A stretch of 55,670 nt of DNA, from the NCBI GenBank assembly GCA_964389675.1, contig CAYMEV010000006.1, positions 91,217 through 146,886 on the forward strand, in the 5' to 3' direction. Below, one piece after another: positions 5,721 to 33,564 of the stretch. Every line of letters starts with the position of its first letter. Positions within the stretch are counted from its first letter, which is position 1. Source of the DNA: an uncultured Candidatus Sumerlaeota bacterium (GTDB lineage: Bacteria > CAYMEV01). A program made the position numbers and the translations under genes. Below the pieces are notes generated by a model. The model had not been told where the DNA came from and did not search any database. It saw only the letters and a program-made list of their open reading frames with translations.

Positions 5721-6350
5721 TTATCTTCTGACCTCATCCAGTAATTGTTTTACAGCCATTTCAACATTGTCAGCAAGGCTGATTGCTGAGATCACAGCTA
5801 CTCCGGAAGCTCCGGCTTTTATGCAGTCATATGCATTTGACCTGTTTATTCCTCCTATTGCAATTACAGGCATAGCACTCTTTTTGCAGAATTTCTCCAG
5901 GCCTTCAATACCGACATTTTTCTCCCTTGTGTCTGTCTTTGACGCAGTTGAAAATATTGCACCATAACCCGAATAATCAGCACCATCAGAATATGCCCTT
6001 TCAAGTTCTCCAGTATTATCCGTTGTTATGCCTATAATCCTGTCTGGGCCAAGGATCCTCCTCGCTTCCCTGCACGGGATATCACTCTGTCCAAGATGGA
6101 CTCCATCTGCATATACAGCAAGGGCTATGTCAATCCTGTCATTTACTACAAATGGAATCCCAAATATATCGGATAGCCTTTTAAGCTTCAGGGCAAGGGT
6201 ATAAAGATCATGCCCGCCAAGTTTCTTTGCTCTGAGCTGCAGCATATTTACCCCTGTTTTGAGTGCTGTTTCAGTAATTTCGATAATATCCCGGTTATTT
6301 GTAATCTCAGGATCCGCAATAAAATATAGCCTGTAATCCGGATTTTTCAT
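5721..6350 (-). CDS. thiE: Thiamine-phosphate synthase
   Basis: Motifs QLRAK, VNDRIDIA, DGVHLGQSD, STASK, IAIGGI, GVAVISAI. Confidence 0.95.
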   Translation of the reverse strand: MKNPDYRLYFIADPEITNNRDIIEITETALKTGVNMLQLRAKKLGGHDLYTLALKLKRLSDIFGIPFVVNDRIDIALAVYADGVHLGQSDIPCREARRILGPDRIIGITTDNTGELERAYSDGADYSGYGAIFSTASKTDTREKNVGIEGLEKFCKKSAMPVIAIGGINRSNAYDCIKAGASGVAVISAISLADNVEMAVKQLLDEVRR

Positions 6351-7156: not shown

Positions 7157-7367
7157 TGGACCCTCCTTCTCATAATACTAAATTTTTTTTTAATTCCATG
7201 CCAGATTAAATAGTTTTGCCTGGTTTTGGTATGCAATAAATAATTAATTCATTTCCCTGATATAATAAAAAAATTTATCACAATTAAAATAAAAAAATTG
7301 AATATCCCAGGATTATGATCTTCAGGCAATATGCTTAGAACTATATCTAAAACACCCTGCCTGAAGC

Positions 7368-7829
7368 CTATTCCTCGTCCGACTTCTCAACTGGTATATA
7401 GATATAAACCTTCTGGCCATCGCAGAAATGCTCTGGATAATATTCAAATGATGGCCCGGAAACAATCTTAAACTCATTTTGTTTCCTGAATTCCTCGTAG
7501 ATATTATTGTAGCACGAAAGCATTTCTGGCAGAGTCGTCTTGAAAACTGCATAACTCTGTTCAGGAATATTTTTTAAGGACATTTTCTCAGGGATTTCCG
7601 AAACACAGCTTACTTCTCTTCCTGCAATATATTCGAACTCCCCTGTTTCACAATTATAATTATCGCACACACCATAATAGATTCCATGATCTGCAGTATT
7701 CTTAAGGCTGTTAATATCCTTAAAGAACTGTTCGTTCCACAGCTTTGTTATTTCCTGGTTCTCATTTTTCCCCCTGTAAAGCACACCTGCAACAGTAAAG
7801 GCTCTCCTTCTTTTAATTTCAAAATTCAT
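7368..7829 (-). CDS. Stand-alone GyrI-like / AraC effector-binding domain protein
   Basis: Start revised to ATG 7829 (GGAGG upstream). Pattern 'ITKLW..F...YGVC....FEYIAG...YAVF...GPSFEYY...IYIPV'. Confidence 0.85.
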   Translation of the reverse strand: MNFEIKRRRAFTVAGVLYRGKNENQEITKLWNEQFFKDINSLKNTADHGIYYGVCDNYNCETGEFEYIAGREVSCVSEIPEKMSLKNIPEQSYAVFKTTLPEMLSCYNNIYEEFRKQNEFKIVSGPSFEYYPEHFCDGQKVYIYIPVEKSDEE

Positions 7830-8062
7830 TCCTTCCCTCCTTTTAAGCATCTTTTACTATGAATTATAGTAAAATAAATAATCCTAAAAAATAAAATTTA
7901 TATATTTATATTCCGGTATGTATTAATGTTCCTGGTCATCTGTTATTTTTCATAAAGACCTGAAAAACTGGAGGATTTAATTTAACTGCTCATTTGTATT
8001 TTGCTGTAAAACGGCATTAACCTGACAATAGCCTTTTTATTGTTATCCAGTTATTCATCTAT

Positions 8063-9283
8063 TCAGGAACCAGGGAAAAAAATATCTTTTTGCAGCTTTT
8101 CAAGAGCAGGCCTGGCAAAAAGAAAACCCTGAAAATATTCTATGCCCTGGTTTTTTAACCAGGCATATTCTTCAGGTGTTTCAACCCCCTCAGCTATAAT
8201 ATCGATCCCGAGTCCTGTGCATGTTCTGATAATACCATGTATGATTGCCTGCCTTGGCCCGCTTTTTTCAATATTCCTTATCAGCATTATATCAAGCTTT
8301 ACAAAATCAGGCTGATATTCTGCAAGAAGGTTCAGCCCTGCATACCCGGCACCAAAATCATCGAGTGCAAAAGCCATCCCGGATCGGCGATAGTCAATAA
8401 TATTTTCCCTGAACTGCTCATAATCCTTGATTATTTCGCTTTCCAGTATCTCGAGGATAATATCTGAAGGCTTGATAATGTTTTGTTCTGCAGCTTTCAG
8501 TATGGATGTAATGGCAGTGGGTGAACTATTAATGTTTGAAGGGGGAAAATTTATGTTGAGCCTGGTCCTGATACCCAGCCTCCTTGCCATGGAAACAGCA
8601 TCAATGCGGCATTGCTCATGGAATTCAACCCTTTTTTCAGCAGGTACCTTTTCCAGTACAGATCCTGCAGGCTGATTCTCCCTGCCTCTGAGTAATGCCT
8701 CATAGCTGTAGATAGTATTTGAAGGAGTATGCACTATCGGCTGAAAGGCAAAAGAATAGAAATTATCACTAAGAACAGCCCGGGATTTTGAGATCTCCTG
8801 GGCAGGGACAGCAGGAGAAGGGCCTGTTATAGATGAACGCCAGTAGCCGTCCATGAAGGCTGAGAGTATTTTGCGGGCTCGTCCTGGGCTGATATTTATA
8901 AATGTTTCCCTGCGGGCAAAATAATCATTTATACCGACTATTTGATCCAGCTGTTCAGGTGAGACATCGGCATATCCCATGGTCCAGTCACCGAAGGAGC
9001 GTTCTGCGATGGGTTCCCGTATTATCAGGGTTATGCTGTCATGGCGTTTATCATTTGAAATTTCCCTAAAAAGCCTGTCAACTTTTGATGCATCACCCTC
9101 AAGGACCTGCAGGAAGCTACCTTCTACATAAAGAAGAATACCTGTTATATTATTTTCTGAATTATGCTTTCTTGCATTTTTAAGAAGGATGCCAAGATCT
9201 TCACTGTCCATGGGCCTTATTGCTGCAGAGCAGTATATTAAATGAATAAGACTGTGTTCTTTCGGAATATCCGGCTTTTCCAA
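8063..9283 (-). CDS. BLUF-EAL blue-light-regulated c-di-GMP phosphodiesterase (BlrP1/BluF-like)
   Basis: BLUF residues: LIYCS (Tyr), HN..NNITGIL, FLQVLEG (Gln), RH, WTM. EAL motifs: FQPIV, YEALLR, LDDFGAGY, VKLD, AEGVET, QGFLFARP. Confidence 0.92.
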   Translation of the reverse strand: MEKPDIPKEHSLIHLIYCSAAIRPMDSEDLGILLKNARKHNSENNITGILLYVEGSFLQVLEGDASKVDRLFREISNDKRHDSITLIIREPIAERSFGDWTMGYADVSPEQLDQIVGINDYFARRETFINISPGRARKILSAFMDGYWRSSITGPSPAVPAQEISKSRAVLSDNFYSFAFQPIVHTPSNTIYSYEALLRGRENQPAGSVLEKVPAEKRVEFHEQCRIDAVSMARRLGIRTRLNINFPPSNINSSPTAITSILKAAEQNIIKPSDIILEILESEIIKDYEQFRENIIDYRRSGMAFALDDFGAGYAGLNLLAEYQPDFVKLDIMLIRNIEKSGPRQAIIHGIIRTCTGLGIDIIAEGVETPEEYAWLKNQGIEYFQGFLFARPALEKLQKDIFFPGS

Positions 9284-19498: not shown

Positions 19499-20233
19499 TT
19501 ATTCTGCGTTTCTTGCAACTCGAAAGCCGATACTGTTCTTGTAATTATCAGGGTCATAAACATGCAGGAAGGAAACTGCACATTGAGATGCATAATAATC
19601 CCAGCTGCCCCCCCTTATGATGCGGCCACCCTGTCTTTCAGTATCAGTCCATTCAAATACATTTCCGCTCATATCATAGATCCCAAGTTCATTGGGTTCC
19701 TTTTTGCCTACCTCATTTGTTTTTTCCTTTGAATTCCCATAGAACCATGCTGAATCCGAAACACTGTCACTGCCGGCATATTCCGTGGCATTACCGCTTC
19801 TTCCCCCTCTTGCTGCATATTCCCATTCCTCACTTGTTGGAAGCCTGTAACCGTCCCCACCTTTCACATTGACATCTGCATTTACAATGTTTTTGCCCCT
19901 GCGTCTCACTCTTGTAATACCGTAATATGCCTTCAGCTTTTCCCTTTTGCTTCTTTCGTTACAGTATGCTACAGCATCATACCATGTCACAGATTCAACA
20001 GGAAGGCTGTCTCCAATAAAAAAAGACGGATTATTCTTCATTACCTCTTCATATTCTGCCTGTGTAATCTCAAATCTGCCTATATAAAAATCATGATCAA
20101 TGCTGATGCTGTTATTTTTTTCTGATGTAGTACCCTTTACTGCAAGTATAAGGTCCTGTTCCGTAGCTGATGAATTACCTGCAAAAATAACAGCCAAAAA
20201 GATCAATGCAGCCCAAAAAAAAGATTTCCGCAT
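19499..20233 (-). CDS. Secreted FGE-sulfatase / SUMF1-like domain protein
   Basis: Signal peptide; motifs EITQAEY, PVESVTWYDA, RLPTSEEWEYAARG, NELGIYDMSGNVFEW, RGGSW and GFRVAR. Confidence 0.9.
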   Translation of the reverse strand: MRKSFFWAALIFLAVIFAGNSSATEQDLILAVKGTTSEKNNSISIDHDFYIGRFEITQAEYEEVMKNNPSFFIGDSLPVESVTWYDAVAYCNERSKREKLKAYYGITRVRRRGKNIVNADVNVKGGDGYRLPTSEEWEYAARGGRSGNATEYAGSDSVSDSAWFYGNSKEKTNEVGKKEPNELGIYDMSGNVFEWTDTERQGGRIIRGGSWDYYASQCAVSFLHVYDPDNYKNSIGFRVARNAE

Positions 20234-20390
20234 AAAAGATCCCCTTTCATTCTCAGTTTGATATAAGATAGATTTGCAGTAATATCAATATTATAAAACA
20301 ATATTTGATAAATATCAATATTGTCTTATAAGAAAATAAATTATTTTTGTTTTTTGCCTGAAAATTAAGCCCCTGCTGGTAGAAGCAAGT

Positions 20391-20771
20391 TCAGTTAATC
20401 CAGAATTTCCATTTTATCTGGCGTGATATACCTTCTGTTTCTAGTCTTAAAAGTATATTATCCTCCCCGGGAGTATATTCCCAGGAAACTGTTTCCCCTG
20501 ATTTTGCGGATGGAAATACACTGAATTCCACATAATCTTCAGAATGTTTCTCGCTCTTGAAATAAAGTTTGAAGGTCGGCATAGAAGGCTGTGATTCCTT
20601 ATCTGTCCTTTTAGCATTAACTTCATAAGATTTACCGGCTTTCAGTTTTGTCTTTTTCTTAAAACAGTACTCATCCTTAGACCATGAAAAGTTTATCTTC
20701 TTTGTCCCGGCCTCAATCAGAAAGGGTGACAGGAGACAAAACACGAGCAATAAGGATATGGCATTTTTCAT
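20391..20771 (-). CDS. Hypothetical secreted protein
   Basis: GGAGG RBS, signal-peptide-like N-terminus, 126 aa. Confidence 0.7.
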   Translation of the reverse strand: MKNAISLLLVFCLLSPFLIEAGTKKINFSWSKDEYCFKKKTKLKAGKSYEVNAKRTDKESQPSMPTFKLYFKSEKHSEDYVEFSVFPSAKSGETVSWEYTPGEDNILLRLETEGISRQIKWKFWIN

Positions 20772-20825: not shown

Positions 20826-22415
20826 TTATTCTATCTCCAGCAATGGGGCTTCAGATGCCCATAGATCGTGAATAAAACCATAGAGATTCTCAGTGACTGA
20901 TATTTTGTAGGGTGTAGGGTTCAGAGCCCTTATGTGATCCTTTCTTATTTCATTAAGCTGAGATGATACAAAATCCCTTATCTCAGAGGGAGACCTTCTT
21001 TTTCTAATTCTGTTCCCGTCCCAGTACTGCTTTGTGAGAGGAAGGATTTTGTAAGGGATGACAACCGCCTTTTTTATCTCATTGAATGGATGCCTGCAGA
21101 GGACTTTCTCTCCGGCATCTGGAGGTTTATCACCAACAGGGACCATCAGGTCAAGGATAGGATAGCCTTCCCTGCCAAAAAGCCTGTAGACATTCTTTCT
21201 GCCTGGAATAGTGATTTTTCCCAGGTCCTGAGATATCTTTATCCTTGGAAGGCCATCAGCTTCAACAAGCTTGTAAACACCTCCCAGGGCTGGCTGTGCC
21301 TGGCAGGTAACAAGATGAGTGCCTATTCCAAATATATCTATCTCATGCCCCTGTGCATTAAGTGAATAAAGGACCTCTTCATTTATATTATTGCTTGCAA
21401 CAATCCTGAAGAAAGAAAGGTCCATATCATAAAAAAGGCTGGTATCCACAAATATCTTCCTGGCTGTTTTTGAAAGGTGTGCAAGATCTCCCGAATCAAT
21501 CCTTATTCCTATCGGTTTATAACCAAGCTTTATAAGTGCCAGAGCAACGCATAAAAAGTTCGGTATCCCTGATTTCAGGGTATCATATGTATCAACAAGA
21601 GCAAGAAAGCTTTCAGGATACGCCAGCGCATAGGATATAAAAGAGGCAAGCTCGCCATTATTAGTATGAGTATAATGAAGCTCCCTTCTTATATCAAGTG
21701 TCAGATCCAGAAGGTCATATTCCTCATTGCCGGCAATATCTCTTATAACTGTTCTGCCAAGGTCTGAAAGATCCCTGAAAGATTGAACATATGAGTGAGC
21801 ATGGGTACCTGCAACTGGTATATCATAAAGCATTCCGGCCAGGACATTGCTGGTCGATTCAAATCCTCCGATATAGGAATATCTTGATGCTGATACCGCA
21901 CCGTCTATTCCCTGGGCTCTCCTCAGGCCAAATTCAATTAGAGTCTTTTCCTGTCCGGCAGCAATTCGGAATCTTGACGCATTAGTTGCAATAAGGGATG
22001 GAAAATTTACAAGGTTAAGGAGAGGTGTTTCAAGCAGCTGAGCGATGGCCAGAGGCCCCTCTACCCGGATCAGGGGTATATTGGGAAATGCCACCGTGCC
22101 TTCATCAAGGGCATAAAGCCTTATTTTTGACATGTCAATACTGCTGAGCCATTCAAAAAATGCTTCGTCTTTTATATTCATTGTTTTTTTCAGGTATTCT
22201 ATATGCTCTTCTTCAAAACTATATCTCTCGAGATATGAAAGAACCTCTTCCAGCCCTGCAAAAACTGCAAATTCACCCAGGAATGGGTTCTCTCTGAAGT
22301 AAAGATCGAATGCAGCGTCTTTATTATGGATACCATTTTTCCAGTAGGCGTATGCCATTGTAAGTTGATAAAAATCCGTCAGCATTGCTGAGGCAAAACT
22401 ATTATATCTGAGCAT
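20826..22415 (-). CDS. pncB: Nicotinate phosphoribosyltransferase
   Basis: Start revised to ATG 22415 (GGAGGA RBS). Motifs LTDFYQLTM, EFGLRRAQG, GTHAHS, LVDTYD, RIDSGDL and GGVYKLVE. Confidence 0.95.
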   Translation of the reverse strand: MLRYNSFASAMLTDFYQLTMAYAYWKNGIHNKDAAFDLYFRENPFLGEFAVFAGLEEVLSYLERYSFEEEHIEYLKKTMNIKDEAFFEWLSSIDMSKIRLYALDEGTVAFPNIPLIRVEGPLAIAQLLETPLLNLVNFPSLIATNASRFRIAAGQEKTLIEFGLRRAQGIDGAVSASRYSYIGGFESTSNVLAGMLYDIPVAGTHAHSYVQSFRDLSDLGRTVIRDIAGNEEYDLLDLTLDIRRELHYTHTNNGELASFISYALAYPESFLALVDTYDTLKSGIPNFLCVALALIKLGYKPIGIRIDSGDLAHLSKTARKIFVDTSLFYDMDLSFFRIVASNNINEEVLYSLNAQGHEIDIFGIGTHLVTCQAQPALGGVYKLVEADGLPRIKISQDLGKITIPGRKNVYRLFGREGYPILDLMVPVGDKPPDAGEKVLCRHPFNEIKKAVVIPYKILPLTKQYWDGNRIRKRRSPSEIRDFVSSQLNEIRKDHIRALNPTPYKISVTENLYGFIHDLWASEAPLLEIE

Positions 22416-22432
22416 CTGCTTCCTCCACTTTT

Positions 22433-23449
22433 TCAGCTCCATTCACTGATCAGAGCATCTGATTCAACTATATTAAAGCCAAAATCTCTGAATTCGTCAA
22501 AAAGCCTTTCCGATATCTCCGTAAAGTCAATAATGCCGGGAATTACCACCGGAGATGTACAATCCGCAAGGATATAGATCTTATTGGCTAGGCTTATATC
22601 TCTTTTGATTATATATTCCTTGAGGTCTCCAAGAGTCCAGGCAAGGCAATGGCTTTTCGCCTGCCCGGCAAAAATTATCCTGTCATAGCCTAGTAGTTTT
22701 TCTATTAGAGAATTATCGGGTTTTAAGGGCTTTCTGTCAATATCAGCAAGCACCTCCGGGCTGAATATTGAATAGTTTTCACTCAGCGGGTTGGAGCCTT
22801 TTACCTCAAAATGAGACTGGCTGTACCTTGAAATATTATGGAAGAATATAGCCTCTTCCACTATCGATACAAGGCTGTGGCCGATTCCGCCGAGTATTGC
22901 ATGAAAAGGCCATATGATCAGGTCATATTTGCCGCTTGCCCTGAGGCTTTCAACATAGTAAAGCATATACTCCTGCAGCTTTTCATAATCCTTATAACCC
23001 AGGCTTTTTACGACCTCCGGATTGACCATATATCTCTTTTCCCTTATATCACTGTCTGTAATTATGGTCATGGGTGATGGGTGCTTTCCTTTTTCATCGA
23101 TAAAGAATATCTGGTGGAAAACCTGCATTGCATGATGTGTATCCATGGTCGGGACTATGCAGGTAATCCGGTCAAGGTTTGTGTAAATAAACCTGCAGAG
23201 CCTCTGATTATCCTCTACAGCGGCCATCCCGCTTCTTCCCGCCACAAAAAGCTCAAATCCAGGAATGCAGAATGTATTCTGGACATCGACGAGTACGAGG
23301 CAGACTTTCTCAGCATCAAGGGAAGATGGACTGATATCATATCTGTTCTTGTATTCAATTGCGCTCTGGAAAAGATTCTGGTAGTCAACTCTGTATATCC
23401 TGTCAGCCTTTGATTCGTCAAAATGTACCGGTATATCGATTCTGCGCAT
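22433..23449 (-). CDS. Isochorismatase-family cysteine hydrolase, probable nicotinamidase (long type)
   Basis: Motifs VDVQNTFC (Asp), TMDTH, IWPFH, KG and GQAKSHC (Cys); lies directly upstream of pncB. Confidence 0.8.
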   Translation of the reverse strand: MRRIDIPVHFDESKADRIYRVDYQNLFQSAIEYKNRYDISPSSLDAEKVCLVLVDVQNTFCIPGFELFVAGRSGMAAVEDNQRLCRFIYTNLDRITCIVPTMDTHHAMQVFHQIFFIDEKGKHPSPMTIITDSDIREKRYMVNPEVVKSLGYKDYEKLQEYMLYYVESLRASGKYDLIIWPFHAILGGIGHSLVSIVEEAIFFHNISRYSQSHFEVKGSNPLSENYSIFSPEVLADIDRKPLKPDNSLIEKLLGYDRIIFAGQAKSHCLAWTLGDLKEYIIKRDISLANKIYILADCTSPVVIPGIIDFTEISERLFDEFRDFGFNIVESDALISEWS

Positions 23450-23461
23450 AGTATCTCCTTT

Positions 23462-24529
23462 TTAAATATCCAGATTAAATCCTATGCCTGGTTTATTTGT
23501 AGGGTATAGAATTCCCTTTTTAATTAATACTGCTCCTGAGGAGGGATCCCCAATAAGTGAAAGATGGCTGTCAAGATCTGCATAAACGACATTTGGCCTT
23601 GCCAGGGCAAAATGCAGGCCAGCTGCTATGGAATATGCAGATTCATCCATGCATCCGACCATAGTTTCGAGTTTTGCTGATGCTGCAACAGCGTTAATCA
23701 TAACAGCTTCGCTTATCCCTCCAACCTTTACCAGTTTTATATTTATCATGTCCACCAGTGATCTTCTTGCAAGCCTGAATGCATCCCTGAGGGTAACCAG
23801 GCTTTCATCAGCCATTACAGGAATGGATACGCTTTTAGTCACTTTTCTTAAAAGATCATATTCTGTCTTCGGGGTGGGCTGTTCAATCAGTTCTATCTTT
23901 TCCTTCTTGGTCTCTTTAACAAATTTTATAGCATCCTCAACTGAGTATCCCTGGTTTGCGTCAAATCTAAGTTCTATACCCCTGCTCAAAGCCTCTCTTA
24001 TTTTTCTAATCTTTTCAATATCTTCATTAACATCCAGCCCACCCTTTATCTTTATAGACTTAAAACCCTGTCCGGCATACTCCTCAGCCTTTTTTACTGT
24101 TGTATCGATATCCATTATCCCTATTGTTATGCTGGTCTTCATCCTGTCCCTGAAGCCTCCAAGAAGCTTCCAGAGAGGCATGCCAGCAGCTTTTCCCAGT
24201 ATATCATGAAGCACCATATCAACTCCTGCCAGCACTGAAGGCTCTTTTGGTATCCTTTCTTTCAGGTTGAAGAGGACTTTTGCCATCCTCAAAGGATCTG
24301 ACGCCAGCAGTACTGGTGAAACAATACTGTTAAATGTATCAGTAACACTATCCGGTGTTTCCCCGGTTATGGCAAAATCAGGAGCACAGCAGCCGAACCC
24401 TGTTATATTGCTGTCTGTATCCGCCTTTATAAATATGTTCACTGCCGTATCTATGGTCTCATATGCTATCCTGTAAGGCTCAGACAGCTTCATCTCTACT
24501 CTTGTCAGCTTAATATCTGTAATCTTCAT
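23462..24529 (-). CDS. Dipeptide epimerase (L-Ala-D/L-Glu epimerase-like, enolase superfamily)
   Basis: KIK catalytic Lys, metal ligands in DANQGY/EQP/ADES, NIKLVK, GCMDES and the DLD substrate motif. Confidence 0.88.
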   Translation of the reverse strand: MKITDIKLTRVEMKLSEPYRIAYETIDTAVNIFIKADTDSNITGFGCCAPDFAITGETPDSVTDTFNSIVSPVLLASDPLRMAKVLFNLKERIPKEPSVLAGVDMVLHDILGKAAGMPLWKLLGGFRDRMKTSITIGIMDIDTTVKKAEEYAGQGFKSIKIKGGLDVNEDIEKIRKIREALSRGIELRFDANQGYSVEDAIKFVKETKKEKIELIEQPTPKTEYDLLRKVTKSVSIPVMADESLVTLRDAFRLARRSLVDMINIKLVKVGGISEAVMINAVAASAKLETMVGCMDESAYSIAAGLHFALARPNVVYADLDSHLSLIGDPSSGAVLIKKGILYPTNKPGIGFNLDI

Positions 24530-24534
24530 ATTAT

Positions 24535-26856
24535 TTAATACTTTCTCTGGTAAATTTCATCCAGCGTAAGGTCTTTGAGATCTTCAATGAACCTTACCAG
24601 GTTTTGTATTATAAGCTCCCAGATCTTCCTTCCTTTTTCAAGGCTGGCTTTGGTAGGGTCTCCCAGAACACCGCTTTTGGATATCTTTGCTGTCCTTGTA
24701 TACCAGTCTATGCTCCTCTTCTGTGTAAAATTCAGGTATTTATTGGAAAAACTGGGGACAAAGGAACTAGCTTTGCCTATATCGACAAGCTCACCCCTGT
24801 TTGCCATTGATGTGCTTGTTTCAATCTCTCCTGCATGAACATCATTGGGTGTATCAATAAGCTTCGAGACATCTATATCGCTTGATTCACCACTGTCAAC
24901 ACAGGTAAATATATGTGCATCCCTGTTTATCTTCTGTGCAGCAATATTTAGTGCAGGGCTGTTCCCTCCGTGCCCGTTAATTATAATAAGCTTTGTTACT
25001 CCGTTTTTGGCACAATTCATTCCAATATCATATACCAGATTTGAAAGTGTATCAGGCCCGATGCTCAATGTTCCCGAAAAATCCTCATGGTGATAAGAGA
25101 CTCCGTATGGGATAAGGGGCAGCACCAGTGGCCTGGGGTTTCGGCAGCGCTCTGCCACCTTTCTGCAGAGGTATTCTGCATCAAAAGCATCTGTATCAAG
25201 CGGGAGATGGGGGCCATGCTGCTCGATTGAGCCGACCGGCAGAAGGGCAATATCAACTATCTTCAGGTATTCCTCTGCTTCGGTCCATTTGAGCTTGCCC
25301 CACTCAAAAGGAAGCCTGCTCAATTTTTCAACATTCCTCCTCCTCTTATCCTGAATATCAAAGGGGTAGGGTTTCTTCATCATGGGTTCACTCAAAAGGT
25401 CAAACTCAATCCAGACCCTGCCCACCTTTTTTACTGACCTTGGGCAGTATTTGCGAAATATCTCAAATAAAGGCATCCTTAAATCCATCGGCATTGTATC
25501 AAAGGGGGATTTTTCACCGTCAAACCTTAGATCTGTGACCTCATGCCTTGGCTTTACAGGCGCTTTGTTTCCGGCCCTGCTCCTGTGTCCCATGCTGTTC
25601 AAAAGGTATATTGCATGCTGGGTACATGCCAGCTCCTGGTGGAGGCTCTTTGTCATGAATTCCTCAAGGCATCGTTTTATCTGCTCATCGTTGTATCCGC
25701 ATCTATGGGGGTCACCGCCCAGAGAACTCAGCATACCTACTATTCTCCTGCATTTCTCGCACTGTCCGCATGGTTTTGCTTTATCTTCCTTTAATTTGGC
25801 TGAATGGCAGGATACCTGATGCTTTTGAATATCAGGGTACCTCCTGTAAAGTATATGCTGAATCATCAACTCCGAAAGGTTTCGCAGAAGTGAAAACTGG
25901 ATTATATTATAGTTCTTGTTCTTATAATACCTGGTCAATGCATTGTCAAAGTACCTGCTCTGGTCATAAAGCCCGTTATAGTGAGTGATACCCTTATATG
26001 TCAGCCTGTATGTAGTATCATATTCATCACCTATAATGATCCTGCCTATGCCCCTTTTTCTTACTACCGGCAGCACCCCGAAAAGAAATACGGCTACAGT
26101 CCAGAGCCTTATCGGGTAATCATCAGAAGGCAGTTTCTGGTAATTTTTTTTAATAAAGGAGAAATTCCTCAGGAAAAAATTGAATACCCTGTCTGAATTT
26201 GTCCATACCCTGGATGTATTTTCAATATTACCCTTAAAGTACCTGTATGCATTCAGGCTCGTAAACCAGTGCCTTCCGGATTCATTTACGAATACGGGAT
26301 GAACCTCCTTTTTAAGCTCCTTAAGCAATGCAAAGCTTAGAAGGCTGTCCTTGCCACCGCTTGAAAGGACAGCATAAGATTCCTGGTCAGCCGGCCATTG
26401 CCTGAAAATCTCTTCAGGCATCTTCTTACCATTGGAATTGAATTCAATAATTGCCCTTTTATGCACATTTCCATATCCCTTAAGCCTTTCAGCAAAAGAG
26501 CTGTGTATATATATATTAGGCCTGAGCATCTTTTTTGCAAGTATCTCCCTGGATGTAAGATCAACCATTTCCCTTATAAATTTTCGGTCATTTTCTGTAA
26601 ATATGCCATTAAACCGGATCTTTTTGCAGAACAGGCCATAATTGAATGCCAGCTGTGAACCGATAACAGATGCCAGGTTCATGTCTTCCAATGATTGAAC
26701 AAAAACATCCTCAGGGTATTTATATATAAGGTCTGCTGATTCTGAATTTCCATTTTTTTCTATCCTGTAGGGCATGCTGATTCTATTTTTGTCAACCCTT
26801 GCAGGGCCAACTTCAAGGATTTCTATCTCATTCAACAGATCAGGTTCAACTTCCAT
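24535..26856 (-). CDS. Fusion of an N-terminal PP-loop/Cys-cluster domain (QueC/MurL-like) and a C-terminal creatininase-family amidohydrolase
   Basis: N-terminal part: LSSGGKDSLLS and SCHS...PCGQCEKCRR. C-terminal part (from about aa 517): PVGSIEQHGPHLPLDTD, YGVSYHH, NGHGGN, HAGEIETS and GVLGDP. Confidence 0.85.
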   Translation of the reverse strand: MEVEPDLLNEIEILEVGPARVDKNRISMPYRIEKNGNSESADLIYKYPEDVFVQSLEDMNLASVIGSQLAFNYGLFCKKIRFNGIFTENDRKFIREMVDLTSREILAKKMLRPNIYIHSSFAERLKGYGNVHKRAIIEFNSNGKKMPEEIFRQWPADQESYAVLSSGGKDSLLSFALLKELKKEVHPVFVNESGRHWFTSLNAYRYFKGNIENTSRVWTNSDRVFNFFLRNFSFIKKNYQKLPSDDYPIRLWTVAVFLFGVLPVVRKRGIGRIIIGDEYDTTYRLTYKGITHYNGLYDQSRYFDNALTRYYKNKNYNIIQFSLLRNLSELMIQHILYRRYPDIQKHQVSCHSAKLKEDKAKPCGQCEKCRRIVGMLSSLGGDPHRCGYNDEQIKRCLEEFMTKSLHQELACTQHAIYLLNSMGHRSRAGNKAPVKPRHEVTDLRFDGEKSPFDTMPMDLRMPLFEIFRKYCPRSVKKVGRVWIEFDLLSEPMMKKPYPFDIQDKRRRNVEKLSRLPFEWGKLKWTEAEEYLKIVDIALLPVGSIEQHGPHLPLDTDAFDAEYLCRKVAERCRNPRPLVLPLIPYGVSYHHEDFSGTLSIGPDTLSNLVYDIGMNCAKNGVTKLIIINGHGGNSPALNIAAQKINRDAHIFTCVDSGESSDIDVSKLIDTPNDVHAGEIETSTSMANRGELVDIGKASSFVPSFSNKYLNFTQKRSIDWYTRTAKISKSGVLGDPTKASLEKGRKIWELIIQNLVRFIEDLKDLTLDEIYQRKY

Positions 26857-27940
26857 CCTGCAAATACTCTCCTTTTTTTAAATGGCTGATGGCAAGCTCA
26901 ATAAGCCTTTCGATATCCTCACTGAAAGGGTCGATGCAGGGGATACCGATCTCCCTCTCAAGCTCCCTGCATACTGAAGGTATGTCTTCTTTCCTTATAT
27001 TTTCATGATTAACAGTCACCGCAATAACAGGTTTTGCTGAAAGCACTCTTATAAGCTCCAGCTGTCTTTCCAGTGGATGCAGAGGGTAATTTGGAAATCC
27101 ATCATAAAACCTTCTCATAGGTGCATGCTGAAGAATTATCAGGTCCGGCCTCCCGGCTGCAAGTATCTCAAACCCTCCTGGATAAGCCGGGTTCATCAGG
27201 CTTCCCTGGCCCTCTATCACTATAATATCAGGATTTTTTTCCAAATATGCCCTGTATACGGCATTCTCAATTTCACCTGATACAAAATCATTAATTATAG
27301 AATCCATGACTATGCTGTATTCAGCACCCTGAAGCCAGGCAGTCTGCCCGGTCCCTATCATCTCAGCCCTGATCCCTTTTCTATTAAGCCCTTCAACAAT
27401 CAGCCAGGCAGTAGTTCTCTTGCCAATGGCTGAATCTGTGCCAAGTATTGCAATTTTCAGGCTCTTGACCTTTTCAATATTCCCTGAAAAGAAGTGCAGG
27501 TCATTTACCGGCGGGGGTTTGCGTATATCCCTTAATACCACTTTATACTGCTTCGCAAGGGAAACCAGCTCAATGTCATCAATAAGATAGTCATGAAGGC
27601 CTGAATCAACATTAAGCCCCAATCTTACTGCATTGATTACGGATTCTCTGTCGCTTTTCGACAGCCTCCCTCCATCAGGTGCAATACCAATTACAAGCTG
27701 ATCTGGCTTCATTCCCTTCTCAATGGAATGCCTGTAAGCGCTTTCAATATCCCTGTATATCTTTATTCCATTTTCTTTGCCGTCAAGCACTGCCCCTGCA
27801 TCCATTCCCACATACCTTGAGTCAATTACTGATAATACCCTGTATCTTCGCGTAAACCTTACAAGACCGTGAGCAGTCTTTCCGTTTGGTGTGTTGAAAG
27901 CCCCTTCGCAGTAGACTATTGCATTCAACAGTGTATCCAT
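26846..27940 (-). CDS. DUF1611 family P-loop protein (DgcN-like)
   Basis: Motifs GKTAHGLVR, GIAPDGG, SGLH, GTDSAIGKRTT, GTGQT, DFVSGEIE, EGQGSL and QHAP. Confidence 0.88.
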   Translation of the reverse strand: MDTLLNAIVYCEGAFNTPNGKTAHGLVRFTRRYRVLSVIDSRYVGMDAGAVLDGKENGIKIYRDIESAYRHSIEKGMKPDQLVIGIAPDGGRLSKSDRESVINAVRLGLNVDSGLHDYLIDDIELVSLAKQYKVVLRDIRKPPPVNDLHFFSGNIEKVKSLKIAILGTDSAIGKRTTAWLIVEGLNRKGIRAEMIGTGQTAWLQGAEYSIVMDSIINDFVSGEIENAVYRAYLEKNPDIIVIEGQGSLMNPAYPGGFEILAAGRPDLIILQHAPMRRFYDGFPNYPLHPLERQLELIRVLSAKPVIAVTVNHENIRKEDIPSVCRELEREIGIPCIDPFSEDIERLIELAISHLKKGEYLQDGS

Positions 27941-29091
27941 CAGCTTTTTCTCCCGGTAAGCAGAACAACATACTTATCGCCGGCAAGGGATTCCTTTTTA
28001 TGCATCTCCAGGAGCACTACCAGCCCTGCTGTGCTTGCAGGAAGCACATGAAGCCCCTCCAGGTCCCTTATCATCTTTGAGTAATTCAGCATATTCTTGT
28101 CACTGGCATAGGATGCATATCCATTGGTTGCCCTGATATACTCAAGAGCCAGATCGCCATCTATTGAATGCCAGTTGATGAGGGGTTCATTTACAGGTGT
28201 TTCTTTTATCTTTTCCGGCTTAAGGTCCACACAATGCTCAAGATTCTTTTTATAAGCCTGAATTATGGGATTCTTGCCATGAGAAGACCCTGCAATAAAC
28301 CTTGGTATCCTTGAAGTCTTGCCTCTCCTGTAAAGGCTTACAAATCCCTTATAGACTCCTGCAAGCGTTGTGCCGTTTGATACAGGAACTGCTAAAAAAG
28401 ACGGGGCATCTCTCAGTTCATCATAAATCTCATAGGCAATGGCTCCGTATGCTTTCAGCTGAATGGCAGTATTTGACCCTCCCGGATTTGCGTCGTATAT
28501 CTCGTCTTTTTCAGCAAGCATCCTTGACAGGTTGACAGCCTCTTCATAGTCGCCCTTTATTTTGATAATATTTGCATTATATTTCTCAATTTCCTGAATC
28601 CTTCTTGTATGATAGTTCTCAGGAATATATATATAGCATGTAAGTCCTGCCAGTTGCGCTGCAAGAGCAATTGCAACACCATAATTCCCGCATGTTGCAA
28701 CAGTTATTGCATCATATCCCCTTCTTAAGGCATCCATGGACTGTTCGAATGCAATCCTGTCCTTTTGTGTGCCTGTTGGATTTCCTCCCTCAAACTTAAG
28801 GTAGATCTGTCTTAGATTGAACTCCCTCTCAAGGTTTTTCGCCCTGTTCATATTGGTATCGCCTATCTCGGAATCAACTATATCCTCATAGGCTTCCAGC
28901 CTCTCTTCCATAGGGAGGTTCCTGTCGCTTGCAGCAATAACCTGGGGTTTCATCTCAGGGGCTATTGCAGGGGCTTGCGATGTCGCCCCGTCTAATAAAA
29001 GAAAATCACTGGTTTTTTCATAATTCCCGGCTTTGCCGGATTCTGAATGATCATCAGTTTTTGACCTTTTATCATTTATCCCGGGCATCAT
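27940..29091 (-). CDS. PLP-dependent fold-type II enzyme (threonine synthase-like, atypical)
   Basis: KFEGGNPTGTQKDRIA (PLP Lys), ATCGNYG, PVSNGTTLAG and LLTGR; AGGAGG RBS; its stop overlaps the DUF1611 start (TGATG). Confidence 0.85.
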   Translation of the reverse strand: MMPGINDKRSKTDDHSESGKAGNYEKTSDFLLLDGATSQAPAIAPEMKPQVIAASDRNLPMEERLEAYEDIVDSEIGDTNMNRAKNLEREFNLRQIYLKFEGGNPTGTQKDRIAFEQSMDALRRGYDAITVATCGNYGVAIALAAQLAGLTCYIYIPENYHTRRIQEIEKYNANIIKIKGDYEEAVNLSRMLAEKDEIYDANPGGSNTAIQLKAYGAIAYEIYDELRDAPSFLAVPVSNGTTLAGVYKGFVSLYRRGKTSRIPRFIAGSSHGKNPIIQAYKKNLEHCVDLKPEKIKETPVNEPLINWHSIDGDLALEYIRATNGYASYASDKNMLNYSKMIRDLEGLHVLPASTAGLVVLLEMHKKESLAGDKYVVLLTGRKS

Positions 29092-29152
29092 CCCAGCCTC
29101 CTGTATGAAACTGAAAAGATAAAGACATATAAGGGATAAGAATCTTTTTCAT
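29072..29152 (-). CDS. Putative 26-aa leader peptide MKKILIPYMSLSFQFHTGGWDDARDK
   Basis: ATG at 29152 with GGAGG 7 nt upstream (29160-29164); TGA at 29074-29072; overlaps the RBS and start of the PLP gene out of frame. Confidence 0.3.
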   Translation of the reverse strand: MKKILIPYMSLSFQFHTGGWDDARDK

Positions 29153-29368
29153 GCAAAATCCTCCGCCAACTTATCATTTCCTGTTTTTTATGCTAACACG
29201 GAAATAAAAAAAATCAAGAATTTAGATATCAGCTGATAGCATAAAAATCTGCAAAATACATATAATAAAATGATTTAGCTTTTTGAATACTCTGAAAAAT
29301 ATTTTTTTTATTTATTTTTGAAAAGTCCTGTATAAAACTATTTCATACACTGAAAGGTTATAAAAGGT

Positions 29369-30850
29369 ATGAATATGAATTGGATACCCCTGGCTATAAT
29401 TCTGGCATATTTTTTCCTGCTAATAACAATTGGCTATCTTGCAAAAAGGCTTTCAAAAACAAGCACAGATTTTTTCATAGCGGGAAGGAATATGGGAATA
29501 ACTCTTGTCACTGTTTCTATAGTGGGAGAATGGCTCGGCGGAATGAGTACTATCGGGACATCTGAAATGGCTTATCAGCATGGGTTTTTCCCTTTATGGT
29601 ATAATGTTTCAACTGCAATCGGGATGTTCTTGTTCGGCCTTACAATGGCCCAGTACTACAGGAGAAACAATGCACATACAGTAGGCGAGATGCTTGAAAA
29701 CCTGTACAGCAAGCATACACGTGTTTTTTCCTCAATAGCGTTTGTAATTGCTTTTATAATACTCTCATTTCTGCAGTTAAAGGCCATAGGAAGTGTAATG
29801 TCCCTTTTGTTCAATATTTCCTTCTCAGCCGCTGTCATAGTATCAGGGATTATCATATTTCTTTATGTCTTTAAGGGAGGGATGTTTTCAATAGCATTTA
29901 CCAACCTGATCCATATAATCCTTTTATACTCTTCAATACTGATAGTCTTTTTCATTGTCTATACCAGGATAGGCGGCTATGAAGGACTATTCTCAAGCCT
30001 TTTCAATCAGTTCATCAAAGAGGGAATCCAGCCGGAACATGCATCTTTGATGGTATCCAGCTATAAAAACCCTTTTTCTCTTGGGATAAGCAGGGTCATA
30101 GCCTGGCTTCTCGGCGGGATATTATCCGGATTTGCATCACAGGCCTGCATTCAGCCGGTATTTTCAGCAAAAAATATAAAAACTGCAAAATACAGCTCAA
30201 TATTGAGCGCTTTCCTCATTGCTCCGCTTGGAATTATTATATCAACGCTTGGAATTGCAGTCAGGACAGGATATTTTGGAAATATAAACGACCTTGAACC
30301 AAAGAATGCTCTGCCCTTTCTACTCCTTGACAATGATCTGCTTTCCCCTGTGCTTTCAGGCCTGGCATCAGCAGGTATAATAGCAGCAATCCTTTCAACT
30401 GTCGCACCCGTAATGTTTGCCATAAGCACTATTCTGGTCAAGGATTTCTATCACAGGATAATAAACGAGAATGCAGAGGAAAAGACTCTTCTGATGGTCT
30501 CCAGGTATTCAGTTCTTTTTGTCTGCCTTCTCACCATCCCCCTTGCAATATTTCTCAAGGGAGGCATCCTCGAGGCTGCCTATATAACATATGGCATAAG
30601 GGCTTCTGCAGCGCTGGTGGTAATAATGGGAATACTATTCCTCAATAAGCGTACTAGAAAATCCCGTATCCCTGAAAAGGCTGCTTCCTATTCAATACTG
30701 GCATCAACAGCAGGAATAATCATATTTGTAATGCTGAAAGGCAGAATTGACAGTATCATCGGGATAGATATCGACAAAGTCTATATATCTCTGATACTAA
30801 GCATCCTGTCATTAATCCTGCTCTCAAAATTCCTTTCCGCGAAAAGGTAA
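29369..30850 (+). CDS. Sodium:solute symporter family protein
   Basis: Motifs DFFIAGRNMG, EWLGGMSTIG, TVGEMLE, GGMFSIAFT and AAILST; about 13 TM segments. Confidence 0.92.
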   Translation: MNMNWIPLAIILAYFFLLITIGYLAKRLSKTSTDFFIAGRNMGITLVTVSIVGEWLGGMSTIGTSEMAYQHGFFPLWYNVSTAIGMFLFGLTMAQYYRRNNAHTVGEMLENLYSKHTRVFSSIAFVIAFIILSFLQLKAIGSVMSLLFNISFSAAVIVSGIIIFLYVFKGGMFSIAFTNLIHIILLYSSILIVFFIVYTRIGGYEGLFSSLFNQFIKEGIQPEHASLMVSSYKNPFSLGISRVIAWLLGGILSGFASQACIQPVFSAKNIKTAKYSSILSAFLIAPLGIIISTLGIAVRTGYFGNINDLEPKNALPFLLLDNDLLSPVLSGLASAGIIAAILSTVAPVMFAISTILVKDFYHRIINENAEEKTLLMVSRYSVLFVCLLTIPLAIFLKGGILEAAYITYGIRASAALVVIMGILFLNKRTRKSRIPEKAASYSILASTAGIIIFVMLKGRIDSIIGIDIDKVYISLILSILSLILLSKFLSAKR

Positions 30851-30938: not shown

Positions 30939-31409
30939 ATGGAAAATATATACACTGTATTAAGGTTGCTGGAGGATCTGGAAGACAGCATATCCATGCT
31001 TTATCAGCGTTTCAGCGATGATTATGCAATCGATGAGGCAACCTCTTTCTTTTTTTACAAACTAAGCCTTGATGAGATCGCACACCGGGACCTCGTCAGG
31101 TACCAGCTGAAGCTTTTAAGAAATGCCCGGCCCGATGCTTATAATGATGTGGACATAGACATTAATATTATCAGGGAACTCATAGATAATATAGAAAAGA
31201 AGCTCAATTCTGATGAAAAATACCCGATAAATCGAGCTGTTGACATTGCCCTTGAGATTGAATCAAATGCTGCGGAACATCATTACAAGGGAGCCATGAA
31301 GCAGGCCATGCCTGAAATGGCAAGGCTTCTTGACAGCCTTGGCAAGGCAGATAAAGAGCATATGCAGCTTATAAGGAATTTTATTAAAAACCATGAGCTG
31401 GGAATATAG
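30939..31409 (+). CDS. Ferritin-like / rubrerythrin-family protein
   Basis: Paired di-iron-type motifs E..(Y), DEIAH, E..A...Y and DKEH; GGAG RBS. Confidence 0.75.
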   Translation: MENIYTVLRLLEDLEDSISMLYQRFSDDYAIDEATSFFFYKLSLDEIAHRDLVRYQLKLLRNARPDAYNDVDIDINIIRELIDNIEKKLNSDEKYPINRAVDIALEIESNAAEHHYKGAMKQAMPEMARLLDSLGKADKEHMQLIRNFIKNHELGI

Positions 31410-31419
31410 CAGGATACCC

Positions 31420-33564
31420 TTATCCTGCCTGATCTTCCCTGTTTATCCTGAACCTTGATATAGCTTCATTAAGGAGGCCAGATTCCCGCCTGAGCCCGGA
31501 AAGTGAATCTGTCATGTTTTTGATGCTCTGAAGGTTTTCTTCAGTGCTTTTTTTCAGTAATTCCGTAATTCTTTTTATCTCGGTGCTTTTTTCGTTTTGC
31601 TCCTGTGAAGCCTTCTTGATGTTGAAGACCATGTCTGATACATTCTTCATTGCTTCTGAAAGCTGTAAGGCTTCATTTGACTGGGAGGCCATTGCATGCT
31701 TTGATTCTTTTGAGCTGTTTTTTATCTCCTCCACAGCCTTTGAAATCTCCTCTGAAATAACAGCCAGATCCTCCAGAGTCTGAGTCATCTCCTTTATCAT
31801 AAAAGTCTCGTCATTTACGTCTTTGGTGATAAGTTTTGAACTTTCAGCCTGCTCTTTGGTATTTCTTACTATCTCCCTTGAAATGGAGCTGGATTTTTGA
31901 GCAGATCCAAGTATTCTCTGGAGGGCGTTTCCTGTCTCCTGGCTTTGCGTAGATCCCTGTTCTACAAGCTCTGATGTTTTTTTCATCGAACTTACAGATT
32001 TTTTTATCCCGTTTTGCAGGCCCTTGATAAGCTCATCAATCTCTCTGGTTGAGACCTTTGTCCTCTCAGACAGGTTCCTGATCTCATCAGCCACAACTGA
32101 AAAACCCTTTCCGTGCTCTCCTGAATGAGCTGCTATAATTGCAGCATTCAGTGAAAGAAGGTTGGTCTGCTCAGTAATATCATTTATTACTATCAGGATG
32201 CTGCCGATTTCCTTTGATCCGATCCTTAAGCCCTCTATATCATCAACTGTATTGTAGACTGTATCGCGTATATGATTCATCAGGTTAATATTCCTCTGTA
32301 CAATATCAATACTTTCCTTTGAGTAGTTTGATACCTCTTCTGACAGTTTCATCGATTCATTGGAAATAGACTCAATCTGTTTTGTTGATTGCTCCATTTC
32401 AATCATGGATGCTGAGATATTCTCGGCAAACCTGTTGAGCTGGTTTGCATTTATTGATGTCTTTTTGATATTTGCTGCAAGTTTTTCAGATGATTCAGCT
32501 GTCTTGACCGTTATATGGTCAAGATTTTCTATGCTTGCAAGGTTGCCTGATATGGAATCTGACATCCTCTGCACGGAAAGGGAAGTATTTTCTGAATTCT
32601 TATACAGTACATTAATATTATTTGATATATGCTGTACGGAAACAAGGACATCCTTCAGGTAATCAGAAATATTATTCAGATTCAGGCTCTGTTTCTCGAC
32701 CACACCGACAAAATTCTTAATGCTGTTTTCAAGCTCCGTATTTCTCTGTTTCATTTTTGTATAACTGTCCTGTATTGCCGATACAGTAGCTATGAGCTGC
32801 TGGGTCATCCTGTTGAAACGATTGCTGAGGTCACCCAGTTCATCATTAGAATGAACGGGAATTTCTATGCTCAGATTGCCCATTGCGATCTGGTCGCTGG
32901 AATGGAGAATACTGCTTACTGGCTTTAAGAGTATTATTTTTATAGCAAATATCCCCATAAACAGAGAGATTATTAAAACAGCATAAAAGATCACTCTGTT
33001 GACGGACTGCATATCCTTTATATCCTGTGATATGACTGCCATCTGCTGGGCAAGATAGCTTGAATGGATCCTTGAAAGCTGTCCAAGCCTTTCTTTTATA
33101 TCCTCTGTTCTTTCATTCAGGCCCTTTGCAGATTCTAATATTTCATCGCTCATAACGCCATTTGCCAGCTGTGTATAGGTTAAGACAGCCTCATCGTTAA
33201 ATATACCTATGAGGCTGGATATTTGCGATACATCTTCCTTTATCCTGTCAGGAACACCATTATAGGCCTGTATTGCAGAAAGACTGCCCACAATCTCATT
33301 GTACTGGGCTTCCGCATCTTCAATAAGCTTCAGCTCGCCTGTAAGAACACTGTCATTATAGTATTTTATAAGGTTATCAAAGCTGACAGCAGCACCTGTT
33401 GTAAGTTTTTCGACAGGAAGATGGACATCGGAGATGATATTCAGCTTGTTTTCAATTCCCTGCCTTGTATTATCAAGCAGGATCATCGAGATTATATAGC
33501 CTATTATAAGAAAGGAAAATGCCAGTAAAATTCGGTAAAGAATTGAAAATCTTATCTTTTTCAT
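31420..33564 (-). CDS. Methyl-accepting chemotaxis protein
   Basis: Two TM segments, HAMP domain ([14 protein letters not shown]), signalling hairpin [37 protein letters not shown]. Confidence 0.95.

Follow-up and report, generated by a model that had tools for sequence, protein, structure and literature searches.

A recurrent bacterial gene cassette pairing a DUF1611 protein with a remote MurL homologue, described from a Candidatus Sumerlaeota genome

The stretch of DNA considered here, hereafter the window, comprises 55,670 nucleotides from an uncultured Candidatus Sumerlaeota bacterium (GenBank assembly GCA_964389675.1, contig CAYMEV010000006.1, positions 91,217 to 146,886 of the forward strand) and lies on contig 6 of a genome (G000) of 3.57 Mb and 93.8% completeness. 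Four consecutive genes, referred to as the cassette, encode a ThrC-like pyridoxal phosphate (PLP) enzyme, a DUF1611 protein, a fusion protein in which a PP-loop domain precedes a creatininase-family hydrolase, and an enolase-superfamily epimerase (Table 1); the fusion gene is single-copy in this genome. The four open reading frames (ORFs) are tightly packed, with the stop codon of the PLP gene and the start of the DUF1611 gene having TGATG in common, the DUF1611 and fusion genes overlapping by 11 bp (ATGGAAGTTGA), and a 5-bp gap (ATAAT) leading from the fusion gene to that of the epimerase. A first-pass annotation, made from the sequence alone, had reported these four coupled genes and their junctions, all of which were borne out. 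The present interpretation is built around the large region preceding the hydrolase, which by profile comparison is a remote homologue of MurL; this homology is the new element reported here.

The N-terminal 510 residues of the fusion (the N-domain) gave no Pfam match at E <= 0.001. When 79 cassette N-domains were compared by hhalign with eight MurL-family proteins fetched from the sampled genomes, a match was obtained with a probability of 99.3% and an E-value of 7.1e-21 over 299 columns, spanning N-domain residues 57-402. Five strong MurL-family genes used in this comparison adjoin MurD-like genes, and the MurL relatives aligned with the N-domain display GGGKDS at the PP-loop and SC...WCxxCxKC at the cysteine cluster. 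In the cassette proteins, S166, G167, G168, K169, D170 and S171 of the SSGGKDS motif are invariant in 72 aligned homologues, and C350, C363, C366 and C369 are invariant both in these 72 and in 79 homologues. The PP-loop and cysteine cluster of the first-pass annotation are real; what that annotation had not foreseen is the second, ATP-driven epimerase-type activity to which the MurL homology points. Among the Atlas look-alikes, MurL clusters accounted for 28 of the 30 named hits, and a weak match to DUF6395, a family that Atlas shows co-occurring with MurL domains, was present in 54 of the 79 N-domains. The N-domain thus belongs by profile homology to the MurL family in its broad sense, and it has a QueC-like PP-loop with both SGGxDS and the four cysteines, but it falls outside MurL orthology as defined by the NCBIfam model NF041275 (a weak match with E 2.9e-4 and 19.4 bits, against a cut-off of 700; nothing in the window genome matches this model at E <= 1e-5), and no adjacent MurD2-type ligase gene was found. 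Two other distant relatives of the domain were noted in the sampled genomes: a 450-aa MurL-like gene that follows genes for a class IV aminotransferase and an M23 peptidase (L106, G113:C30:4000-16000, positions 2144-6513), and a 552-aa one among ORFs without Pfam match (L105, G295).

Table 1. Cassette genes, their domains and motifs, and adjoining genes, in positions of the window (gene coordinates from its ORF list; aa, amino acids)
Feature	Position	Strand	Basis or remark
ThrC-like fold-type-II PLP enzyme, 383 aa	27940..29091	-	PALP; first gene of the cassette
DUF1611 protein, 364 aa	26846..27940	-	PF17396 + PF07755
PP-loop::creatininase-family fusion, 773 aa	24535..26856	-	Creatininase domain + conserved motifs
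MurL-like domain (predicted), fusion residues 1-510	25327..26856	-	hhalign against MurL family
PP-loop motif SSGGKDS, fusion residues 165-171	26344..26364	-	Translation
Cys4 cluster, C350 ... C363-G-x-C366-E-K-C369 (QueC-type metal site)	25750..25809	-	Alignment of homologues
Creatininase-family binuclear-metal amidohydrolase domain, fusion residues 511-773	24535..25326	-	PF02633
Enolase-superfamily epimerase, dipeptide-epimerase group, 355 aa	23462..24529	-	MR_MLE_N + MR_MLE_C
Nicotinamidase-like ORF, 338 aa, lineage-specific	22433..23449	-	Atlas look-alikes
Nicotinate phosphoribosyltransferase (NAPRTase), 538 aa, lineage-specific	20826..22442	-	TIGR01513
Sodium:solute symporter, 493 aa, lineage-specific, divergent	29369..30850	+	PF00474 (SSF)

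The cassette is widespread. At least 2943 protein clusters are homologous to the N-domain; among the 120 listed, 116 are 770-812 aa long and contain the creatininase domain, and the other four are 524-549 aa long and do not. A scan of one genome per species returned at least 570 confirmed matches, and the locus counts given throughout refer to the best 80 loci of these, each of which was searched with the window proteins. A PLP gene lies upstream of the fusion gene in 69 of the 70 loci with room for it, together with an adjacent DUF1611 gene in 67, and an epimerase gene lies downstream in 59 of 71, the cassette genes never differing in strand or order. The first-pass annotation had made its proposal depend on the co-occurrence of the four genes in other genomes, and they do co-occur, in this order, across many phyla. 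The 80 loci carry Desulfobacterota-type, Bacteroidota, Ignavibacteriota, Calditrichota, Acidobacteriota/Aminicenantes, Gemmatimonadota, Zixiibacteriota, Latescibacterota, Krumholzibacteriota, Planctomycetota and Deferribacterota labels, in addition to several doubtful labels of metagenome-assembled genomes, and include the cultured Desulfosarcina variabilis and Flexithrix dorotheae; the DNA is also present in marine-sediment and sediment metagenome runs, none of those listed being an RNA run. In a sample of 401 genomes a strong N-domain match (E < 1e-200) was found in 12 (about 3%), all of which belong to the 13 genomes whose PLP gene exceeds the cut-off of the model PRK06381 (NF004996); in the nine genomes with both genes on one contig these lie about 2-3 kb apart, and in the thirteenth (G204) the PLP gene is an orphan. 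In a quick tree, the 79 N-domains fall into taxonomic groups at shallow depth over an unresolved backbone with several mixed placements, and the window protein is on a long branch. Its lineage is isolated, since among 40 relatives the sole carrier of the full-length fusion is a genome of the same genus (G001), all others being related merely at the level of "same domain".

Departures from the standard arrangement are informative about its core. The hydrolase domain is fused to the N-domain in 66 of the 80 loci, absent from 10, cut off by a contig end in three and split in one. Seven loci (six of a single Lewinellaceae-type clade and L090) have the PLP, DUF1611 and N-domain genes alone, three lack the hydrolase and keep the epimerase, and four have the fused form without adjacent epimerase. 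The most reduced version was observed in a 1.4-Mb genome (L104, G344:C1:175000-189500, positions 5813-8903, minus strand), in which the genes for DUF1611, a 482-aa MurL-like protein standing alone and a GNAT acetyltransferase follow one another with overlapping junctions, and no PLP enzyme, hydrolase or epimerase was found nearby; its N-domain is 33% identical to that of the window (E 1e-84). As DUF1611 and the MurL-like domain are kept together in every variant seen, they are considered the core of the cassette. A NIF3-like neighbour family (cluster 10) was examined as a stand-in for the missing hydrolase and discarded, because it also occurs beside the fused form. Apparent triple fusions of DUF1611, MurL-like domain and hydrolase in two genomes (G370 and G080) turned out to be frame artefacts of GC-rich DNA, with DUF1611 in another frame. 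A 1026-aa ORF in which the first 200 or so DUF1611 residues are in frame with the whole fusion (L072:2193-5273) is possibly a deletion or an assembly artefact.

Synteny of this extent bears on the simplest explanation for the locus, namely that true threonine synthase, creatininase and Ala-Glu epimerase genes, each with its own housekeeping role, lie together by chance. The PLP enzyme would be its support: it is a clear PALP protein (E 1.4e-54), it scores 438.7 bits with PRK06381, named "threonine synthase" (cut-off 266), and the window genome, within its 93.8% completeness, has no ThrC above the cut-off of TIGR00260. However, the enzyme itself fails TIGR00260 (106 bits against 167), has an N-terminal extension of about 70 residues, and its closest solved relative, the ThrC 2zsj, reaches just 110 bits, although the lysine motif NPTGxxKDR is kept. 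Moreover, a separate ThrC above this cut-off is encoded in each of five other cassette genomes examined, where the cassette copies score 84-111 bits. The PLP enzyme of the cassette is accordingly not the housekeeping ThrC, as the first-pass annotation had surmised in calling it atypical. The name attached to NF004996 is probably a long-standing mis-annotation; in practice, a score above its cut-off marks the cassette, the strong N-domain match being present in 12 of the 13 genomes, out of 401, that reach it. The specific equivalog cut-offs are all missed by the cassette enzymes, and the hydrolase has Gly in place of the Glu of the creatininase HYEN motif. Chance clustering is unlikely because other genomes repeat the four-gene set with its order unchanged; with order and strand conserved across phyla and co-occurrence in 12 of 13 genomes, this explanation is refuted for practical purposes. 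ThrC-type enzymes are synthases, and would more naturally supply an amino acid than carry out the elimination that the first-pass annotation had suggested.

In the AlphaFold2 model of the N-domain (pLDDT 88), a QueC-like PP-loop core is flanked by an N-terminal subdomain and a helical tail. In VIA comparisons of residues 158-381, the closest structures were Cap9 (9nto_B, Z 12.8) and QueC (3bl5, Z 12.6), with an rmsd of 2.6-3.1 over 177-189 residues, followed at Z 8-9 by the PP-loop enzymes TilS, TtuA, NcsA and LarE; Foldseek likewise lists QueC, Cap9 and QatC. No MurL structure came up in the structure libraries searched, and a sequence search of the PDB with the fusion profile returned creatininases and, marginally, TtuA (E 0.67). 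QueC, Cap9 and QatC make amide bonds from adenylated carboxylates, and their likeness to the N-domain suggests a different chemistry, in which an amine would attack the adenylated carboxylate to yield an N-acyl dipeptide or a ring, the hydrolase would deprotect it, and the enolase-type enzyme would epimerise the free dipeptide, giving a peptide-like solute or antimetabolite. Gene order would then equal reaction order, the seven-locus three-gene variant would end at the N-acyl product, the stress and osmotic flavour of the neighbouring genes would suit such a solute, and the epimerase does keep the DxD motif that binds the ammonium group of a free dipeptide N-terminus. Nevertheless, MurL is the nearest family in sequence (E 7e-21), Pfam QueC giving at best E 1.4e-3 in the weak matches to the cysteine stretch seen in 63 of the 79 N-domains, and the successive steps are predictions. 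We therefore consider ligation or cyclisation of this kind unlikely. The PP-loop core and the Cys4 site do superpose on those of QueC, Cap9 and QatC, but the cassette domain extends beyond the core by about 150 residues on the N-terminal side and about 130 on the C-terminal side, and no queuosine or defence genes occur near the cassette.

The hydrolase part is a creatininase-family protein in fold and in active site. Pfam Creatininase (PF02633) matches fusion residues 521-757 with E 1.2e-67 (228 bits), Foldseek finds the creatininase fold (E 1e-9), and in comparison with the creatininase 1q3k the domain retains the metal and catalytic residues EQHGxH, D, NGH and H..ETS. The exception is the replacement in HYEN, where the domain reads GHGGN for GHYEN as does the Nostoc protein 3no4. 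The score with the creatininase model TIGR04448 is 99 bits against a cut-off of 235, and among the closest families with a name are those of the peptidase MftE and the deformylase ArfB. The fusion to a MurL-like domain and the scores below equivalog cut-offs set it apart from known members of the family. Since MftE provides its best NCBIfam match (TIGR03964, 141 bits), a route in the style of mycofactocin could be imagined, whereby a ribosomally made scaffold peptide would be activated at its C-terminal carboxylate by the MurL-like domain and trimmed of its modified end by the MftE-like one; MurL itself acts on the C-terminus of a peptide. Yet the MftE score stays below its cut-off of 172, no small ORF that could encode a precursor recurs within 700 bp of the cassette in more than five of the 80 loci (the few that do so have the appearance of antisense artefacts), and no radical-SAM gene or other gene for ribosomally synthesised, post-translationally modified peptides is recurrent, the 14 neighbourhoods annotated gene by gene containing one lysine-aminomutase-like radical-SAM enzyme. 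A scaffold-peptide route is very improbable.

The epimerase resembles dipeptide epimerases along its full length. Its best PDB matches are YkfB (1jpm/1tkk; 230 bits for 1jpm), 3rit (225 bits) and 3jva (223 bits), and the top six are all dipeptide epimerases. The features of this group, namely the KxK motif, the three metal carboxylates, the second catalytic Lys and the DxD motif, are present. Of the 63 cassette epimerases, 60-63 retain K160/K162, D190, E, D, K268 and D318-x-D320; a second-shell Lys is also kept (IKLVKVGG). The numbering of dipeptide-epimerase lysines (K162/K268/K271) follows bioRxiv 10.1101/2022.03.03.481873. In the substrate pocket, Glu24 (59 of 63 sequences) stands where Bacillus subtilis YkfB has Arg24, and further acidic residues of the pocket, D51, E57 and D295-E296, are conserved as well; the motif CMDES is common to the cassette enzyme and 3rit. 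Arg24 of YkfB binds the Glu side chain of the substrate, and 3rit binds cationic dipeptides. D-Glu or Ala-Glu is an unlikely substrate because Glu replaces this Arg, and the models for L-Ala-D/L-Glu epimerases are indeed missed (NF041118, A_G_epim_Thtga, 254 bits against 500; NF011708, 76 against 343).

The DUF1611 protein is composed of a Rossmann-like N domain (DUF1611_N, PF17396, 79 bits) and a P-loop C domain (DUF1611_C, PF07755, 213 bits; LGTDSAIGKRTTAW), the P-loop stretch being at least 95% conserved in 76 sequences. Its PDB matches are 2g0t (143 bits) and 7xrj (117 bits). A DUF1611 protein and an enolase-type racemase in one operon recall DgcN and DgcA, reportedly an N-acetyltransferase and an N-acetyl-D-Glu racemase of D-glutamate catabolism, and the first-pass annotation had linked the two cassette proteins to this pair. 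They are not orthologues, however: with the DgcN model NF041892 the DUF1611 protein scores 157.2 bits against a cut-off of 480, and with the DgcA model NF042940 the epimerase scores 147.6 against 400. The layout differs as well, the two genes being separated in the cassette by the fusion gene and accompanied by the PLP, MurL-like and hydrolase functions.

Downstream of the cassette the tight packing persists, with the nicotinamidase-like ORF beginning 12 bp after the epimerase gene, preceded by AGGAG, and overlapping the NAPRTase gene by 10 bp. The former has no Pfam, NCBIfam or PDB sequence match, and its Atlas look-alikes are named nicotinamidase/isochorismatase (0.95-0.98); the latter scores 509 bits with TIGR01513 (cut-off 297), and an insertion is suggested by the model matches falling in two stretches. 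Neither gene was found in any of the 80 other loci. On the other side, the symporter gene diverges at 277 bp from the start of the PLP gene; its product (PF00474) is below every NCBIfam equivalog cut-off, and the matches in other loci are two of 80, weak (42-46 bits) and not adjacent. The whole arrangement of symporter, nicotinamidase-like gene and NAPRTase is kept in the same-genus genome. The two downstream genes look like an NAD-salvage pair, and it is in this genus alone that they are probably transcribed along with the cassette. The symporter does therefore lie divergently, as had been reported, but it is no part of the conserved unit.

These observations matter for the direction of the pathway. 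In a catabolic or salvage route for a D-amino acid or for a peptide with a D-residue, the frame chosen in the first-pass annotation, DUF1611 would N-acylate the D-amino acid, the epimerases would convert it to the L form (irreversibly at the MurL-like step), the hydrolase would deacylate it, and the PLP enzyme would degrade or convert the product. Such a route would agree with the DgcN/DgcA layout named by NCBIfam and mentioned in PMC10845958, with the divergent symporter of this genus, and with the dipeptide epimerases known from murein-peptide recycling (PMC3605383). It is weakened because no transporter is conserved with the cassette: no transporter family occurs in more than nine of the 80 loci, MFS families appearing in five and four, so that the import step of the first-pass annotation also loses ground. 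Furthermore, both proteins are far below the DgcN and DgcA cut-offs, MurL is described as working from L to D only, Glu24 takes the place of the YkfB Arg that binds the Glu side chain, ThrC-type enzymes are synthases, and the neighbours are stress and ion genes instead of catabolic ones. On balance we regard catabolism as a rather unlikely purpose.

The neighbour families were obtained by clustering the genes of the 80 loci and examining one representative of each cluster with Pfam. The recurrent ones are YitT/DUF2179 (nine loci, plus four with a shorter DUF5698/DUF2179 type, in many cases immediately downstream of the epimerase), CorA and MscS (nine each), GroEL (seven), DHH phosphoesterase (five), diadenylate cyclase (DAC) and Usp (four each), and polyamine, potassium-channel (TrkA) and lysine-aminomutase/ATP-grasp sets occur once each in the 14 annotated neighbourhoods. 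The 30 largest neighbour clusters include none of Mur ligases. This composition hints at stress and ion homeostasis. In several Desulfobacterota-type loci (L064:861-6124, L089:777-2927 and L043:14628-16738) a divergent gene set beside the cassette encodes a lysine-2,3-aminomutase-like radical-SAM enzyme, two ATP-grasp proteins resembling D-Ala-D-Ala ligase and a histone-deacetylase-like enzyme. Within the window, the flanking regions (19499-20771 and 30939-33564) encode a 244-aa FGE-sulfatase-domain protein, a 714-aa methyl-accepting chemotaxis protein and two ORFs of 126 and 156 aa without family match, both of which are kept in the same-genus genome.

With respect to regulation, no Rfam match at gathering score (riboswitch or leader RNA) was obtained in the window or in six loci, and a scan of the window for sigma-70 promoters and terminators gave no excess over the shuffled expectation; the first terminator-like hairpin outside a coding frame on the cassette strand is at 20389-20369. 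A sigma-54 promoter upstream of the PLP gene was also considered and dropped, 71 upstream regions scoring no better than the opposite strand and the window having none; good matches are restricted to a few loci (L041, L021 and L084), and Pfam confirmed sigma-54 activators in L029, L060 and L087 only. A neighbour cluster covering 26 loci (cluster 3) is a mixed receiver-domain cluster and not a set of 26 such activators.

The relation to cell-wall D-glutamate was approached through MurI. No match to MurI (TIGR00067) was found in the window genome (93.8% complete) or in the same-genus genome (91%), each of which has one class IV aminotransferase. MurI is, in turn, present in all four of the other cassette genomes tested, which disposes of the cassette as a general substitute for MurI and argues that supplying D-Glu to the cell wall is not its general role. 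Elsewhere in the window genome (L112, G000:C15:36104-40111), genes for a glutamine synthetase, a MurD-like ligase (175 bits against a cut-off of 212) and a 359-aa weakly ThrC-like PLP protein lie on one strand.

The mechanism proposed here starts from gene order, conservation, domain identities, the MurL homology and the retained catalytic residues, all established by computation, and from these we infer the chemical steps, the substrate and the direction of the cassette. According to PMC5808125 and PMC8788868, MurL is ATP/Mg-dependent and AMP-forming, works in the L to D direction only and on the C-terminal Glu of a peptide, and was at that time described as without known domains; adenylation of the alpha-carboxylate is put forward there as the authors' hypothesis. 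By analogy, the ThrC-like PLP enzyme would turn a phosphorylated precursor into an amino acid that is probably non-standard or basic (first step). DUF1611 would then acylate or aminoacylate the alpha-amine of this amino acid, much as DgcN acts with acetyl-CoA (second step), and the MurL-like domain, with ATP, would adenylate the free alpha-carboxylate of the N-acylated residue and invert its alpha-carbon in one direction (third step). The fused creatininase-family hydrolase would remove the acyl group or open the activated intermediate (fourth step), and the enolase-type epimerase would act on the free dipeptide or amino compound so formed, the side chain of which is probably basic (final step). 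The net effect would be an irreversible stereo-inversion of the residue, paid for with ATP and an acyl donor, which would serve the cell's own metabolism by making a D-residue small molecule or building block, and not growth on an imported nutrient. That a MurL-type inversion would need an N-acylated neighbouring group is our own chemical reasoning. The succession of acylation, epimerisation and deacylation drawn in the first-pass annotation stays a reasonable frame.

Acylation by DUF1611, adenylation and inversion by the MurL-like domain and deacylation by the fused hydrolase are put forward tentatively, as a proposal that we would not rate as high as an even chance. It is favoured because of the MurL homology, the invariant PP-loop and Cys4 cluster, the conserved gene order and the residues kept in hydrolase and epimerase, and also because no transporter is recurrent, the neighbours are stress and ion-homeostasis genes, and separate ThrC and MurI enzymes exist in other cassette genomes. 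Several points weigh against it. The MurL homology is remote (18% identity), and some other adenylation-dependent reaction could be that of the domain. The scheme has no obvious need of two epimerase-type enzymes within a single operon, and the role of the enolase-type enzyme is its weakest link. DgcN, the only characterised DUF1611 protein named by NCBIfam, belongs to a catabolic D-to-L pathway, and the assignment of DUF1611 as the acyltransferase is open to doubt because a GNAT gene adjoins it in the reduced locus described above. The adjacent symporter, albeit in this genus alone, would fit uptake. A stress role is no more than hinted at, because many loci come from related Desulfobacterota-type genomes and the neighbour counts are not independent, and regulation gives no clue to function since sigma-54 sites are not enriched and riboswitches were not found.

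When placed among known systems, the cassette would work like a blend of the MurD2/MurL pair, which forms the peptide bond and then uses ATP to invert the C-terminal residue just added, with the pathways that acylate, racemise and deacylate. The MurL-like domain has a size similar to MurL (about 450-510 aa), and its PP-loop, its SC...C-x2-C-x-K-C cluster and several other blocks align; each is encoded beside a gene for the would-be maker of an N-acylated C-terminal residue, MurD-like in one case and DUF1611 in the other. It differs in being only about 18% identical, in having no MurD-like neighbour and in its fusion to a hydrolase in most loci. The N-succinyl-amino-acid racemase pathway of the Gerlt laboratory is said to acylate, racemise and deacylate by means of an enolase-superfamily racemase; the logic of acyl transfer, alpha-carbon inversion and deacylation is shared, but the cassette has other acyltransferase and hydrolase families, an added MurL-like step and a PLP enzyme. 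In terms of sequence, the cassette proteins are members of the MurL, DUF1611, creatininase and dipeptide-epimerase families in their broad sense, and not of the specific families within these. The first-pass annotation held the pathway to be uncharacterised, and no paper on the cassette was found in the literature searched, from which most subscription-journal papers were absent.

In summary, the current labels "threonine synthase" and "creatininase family protein" are probably wrong for these proteins, and the link to MurL provides a testable chemical hypothesis for a large uncharacterised family. The existence of cultured and harmless carriers, Desulfosarcina variabilis and Flexithrix dorotheae, brings the question within reach of the bench. 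In its broadest form, which we offer as a doubtful but possible extension, one-way inversion of the MurL type would reach beyond the Xanthomonas-style cell-wall pathway and be the heart of a widespread, horizontally shared cassette, composed of DUF1611 and the MurL-like domain and usually also of the PLP synthase, the fused deacylase and the dipeptide epimerase, that builds a D-residue small molecule in many sediment bacteria, for instance a stress-protective solute or an envelope component. The MurL link thus suggests that ATP-dependent stereo-inversion may have a wider role in bacteria.

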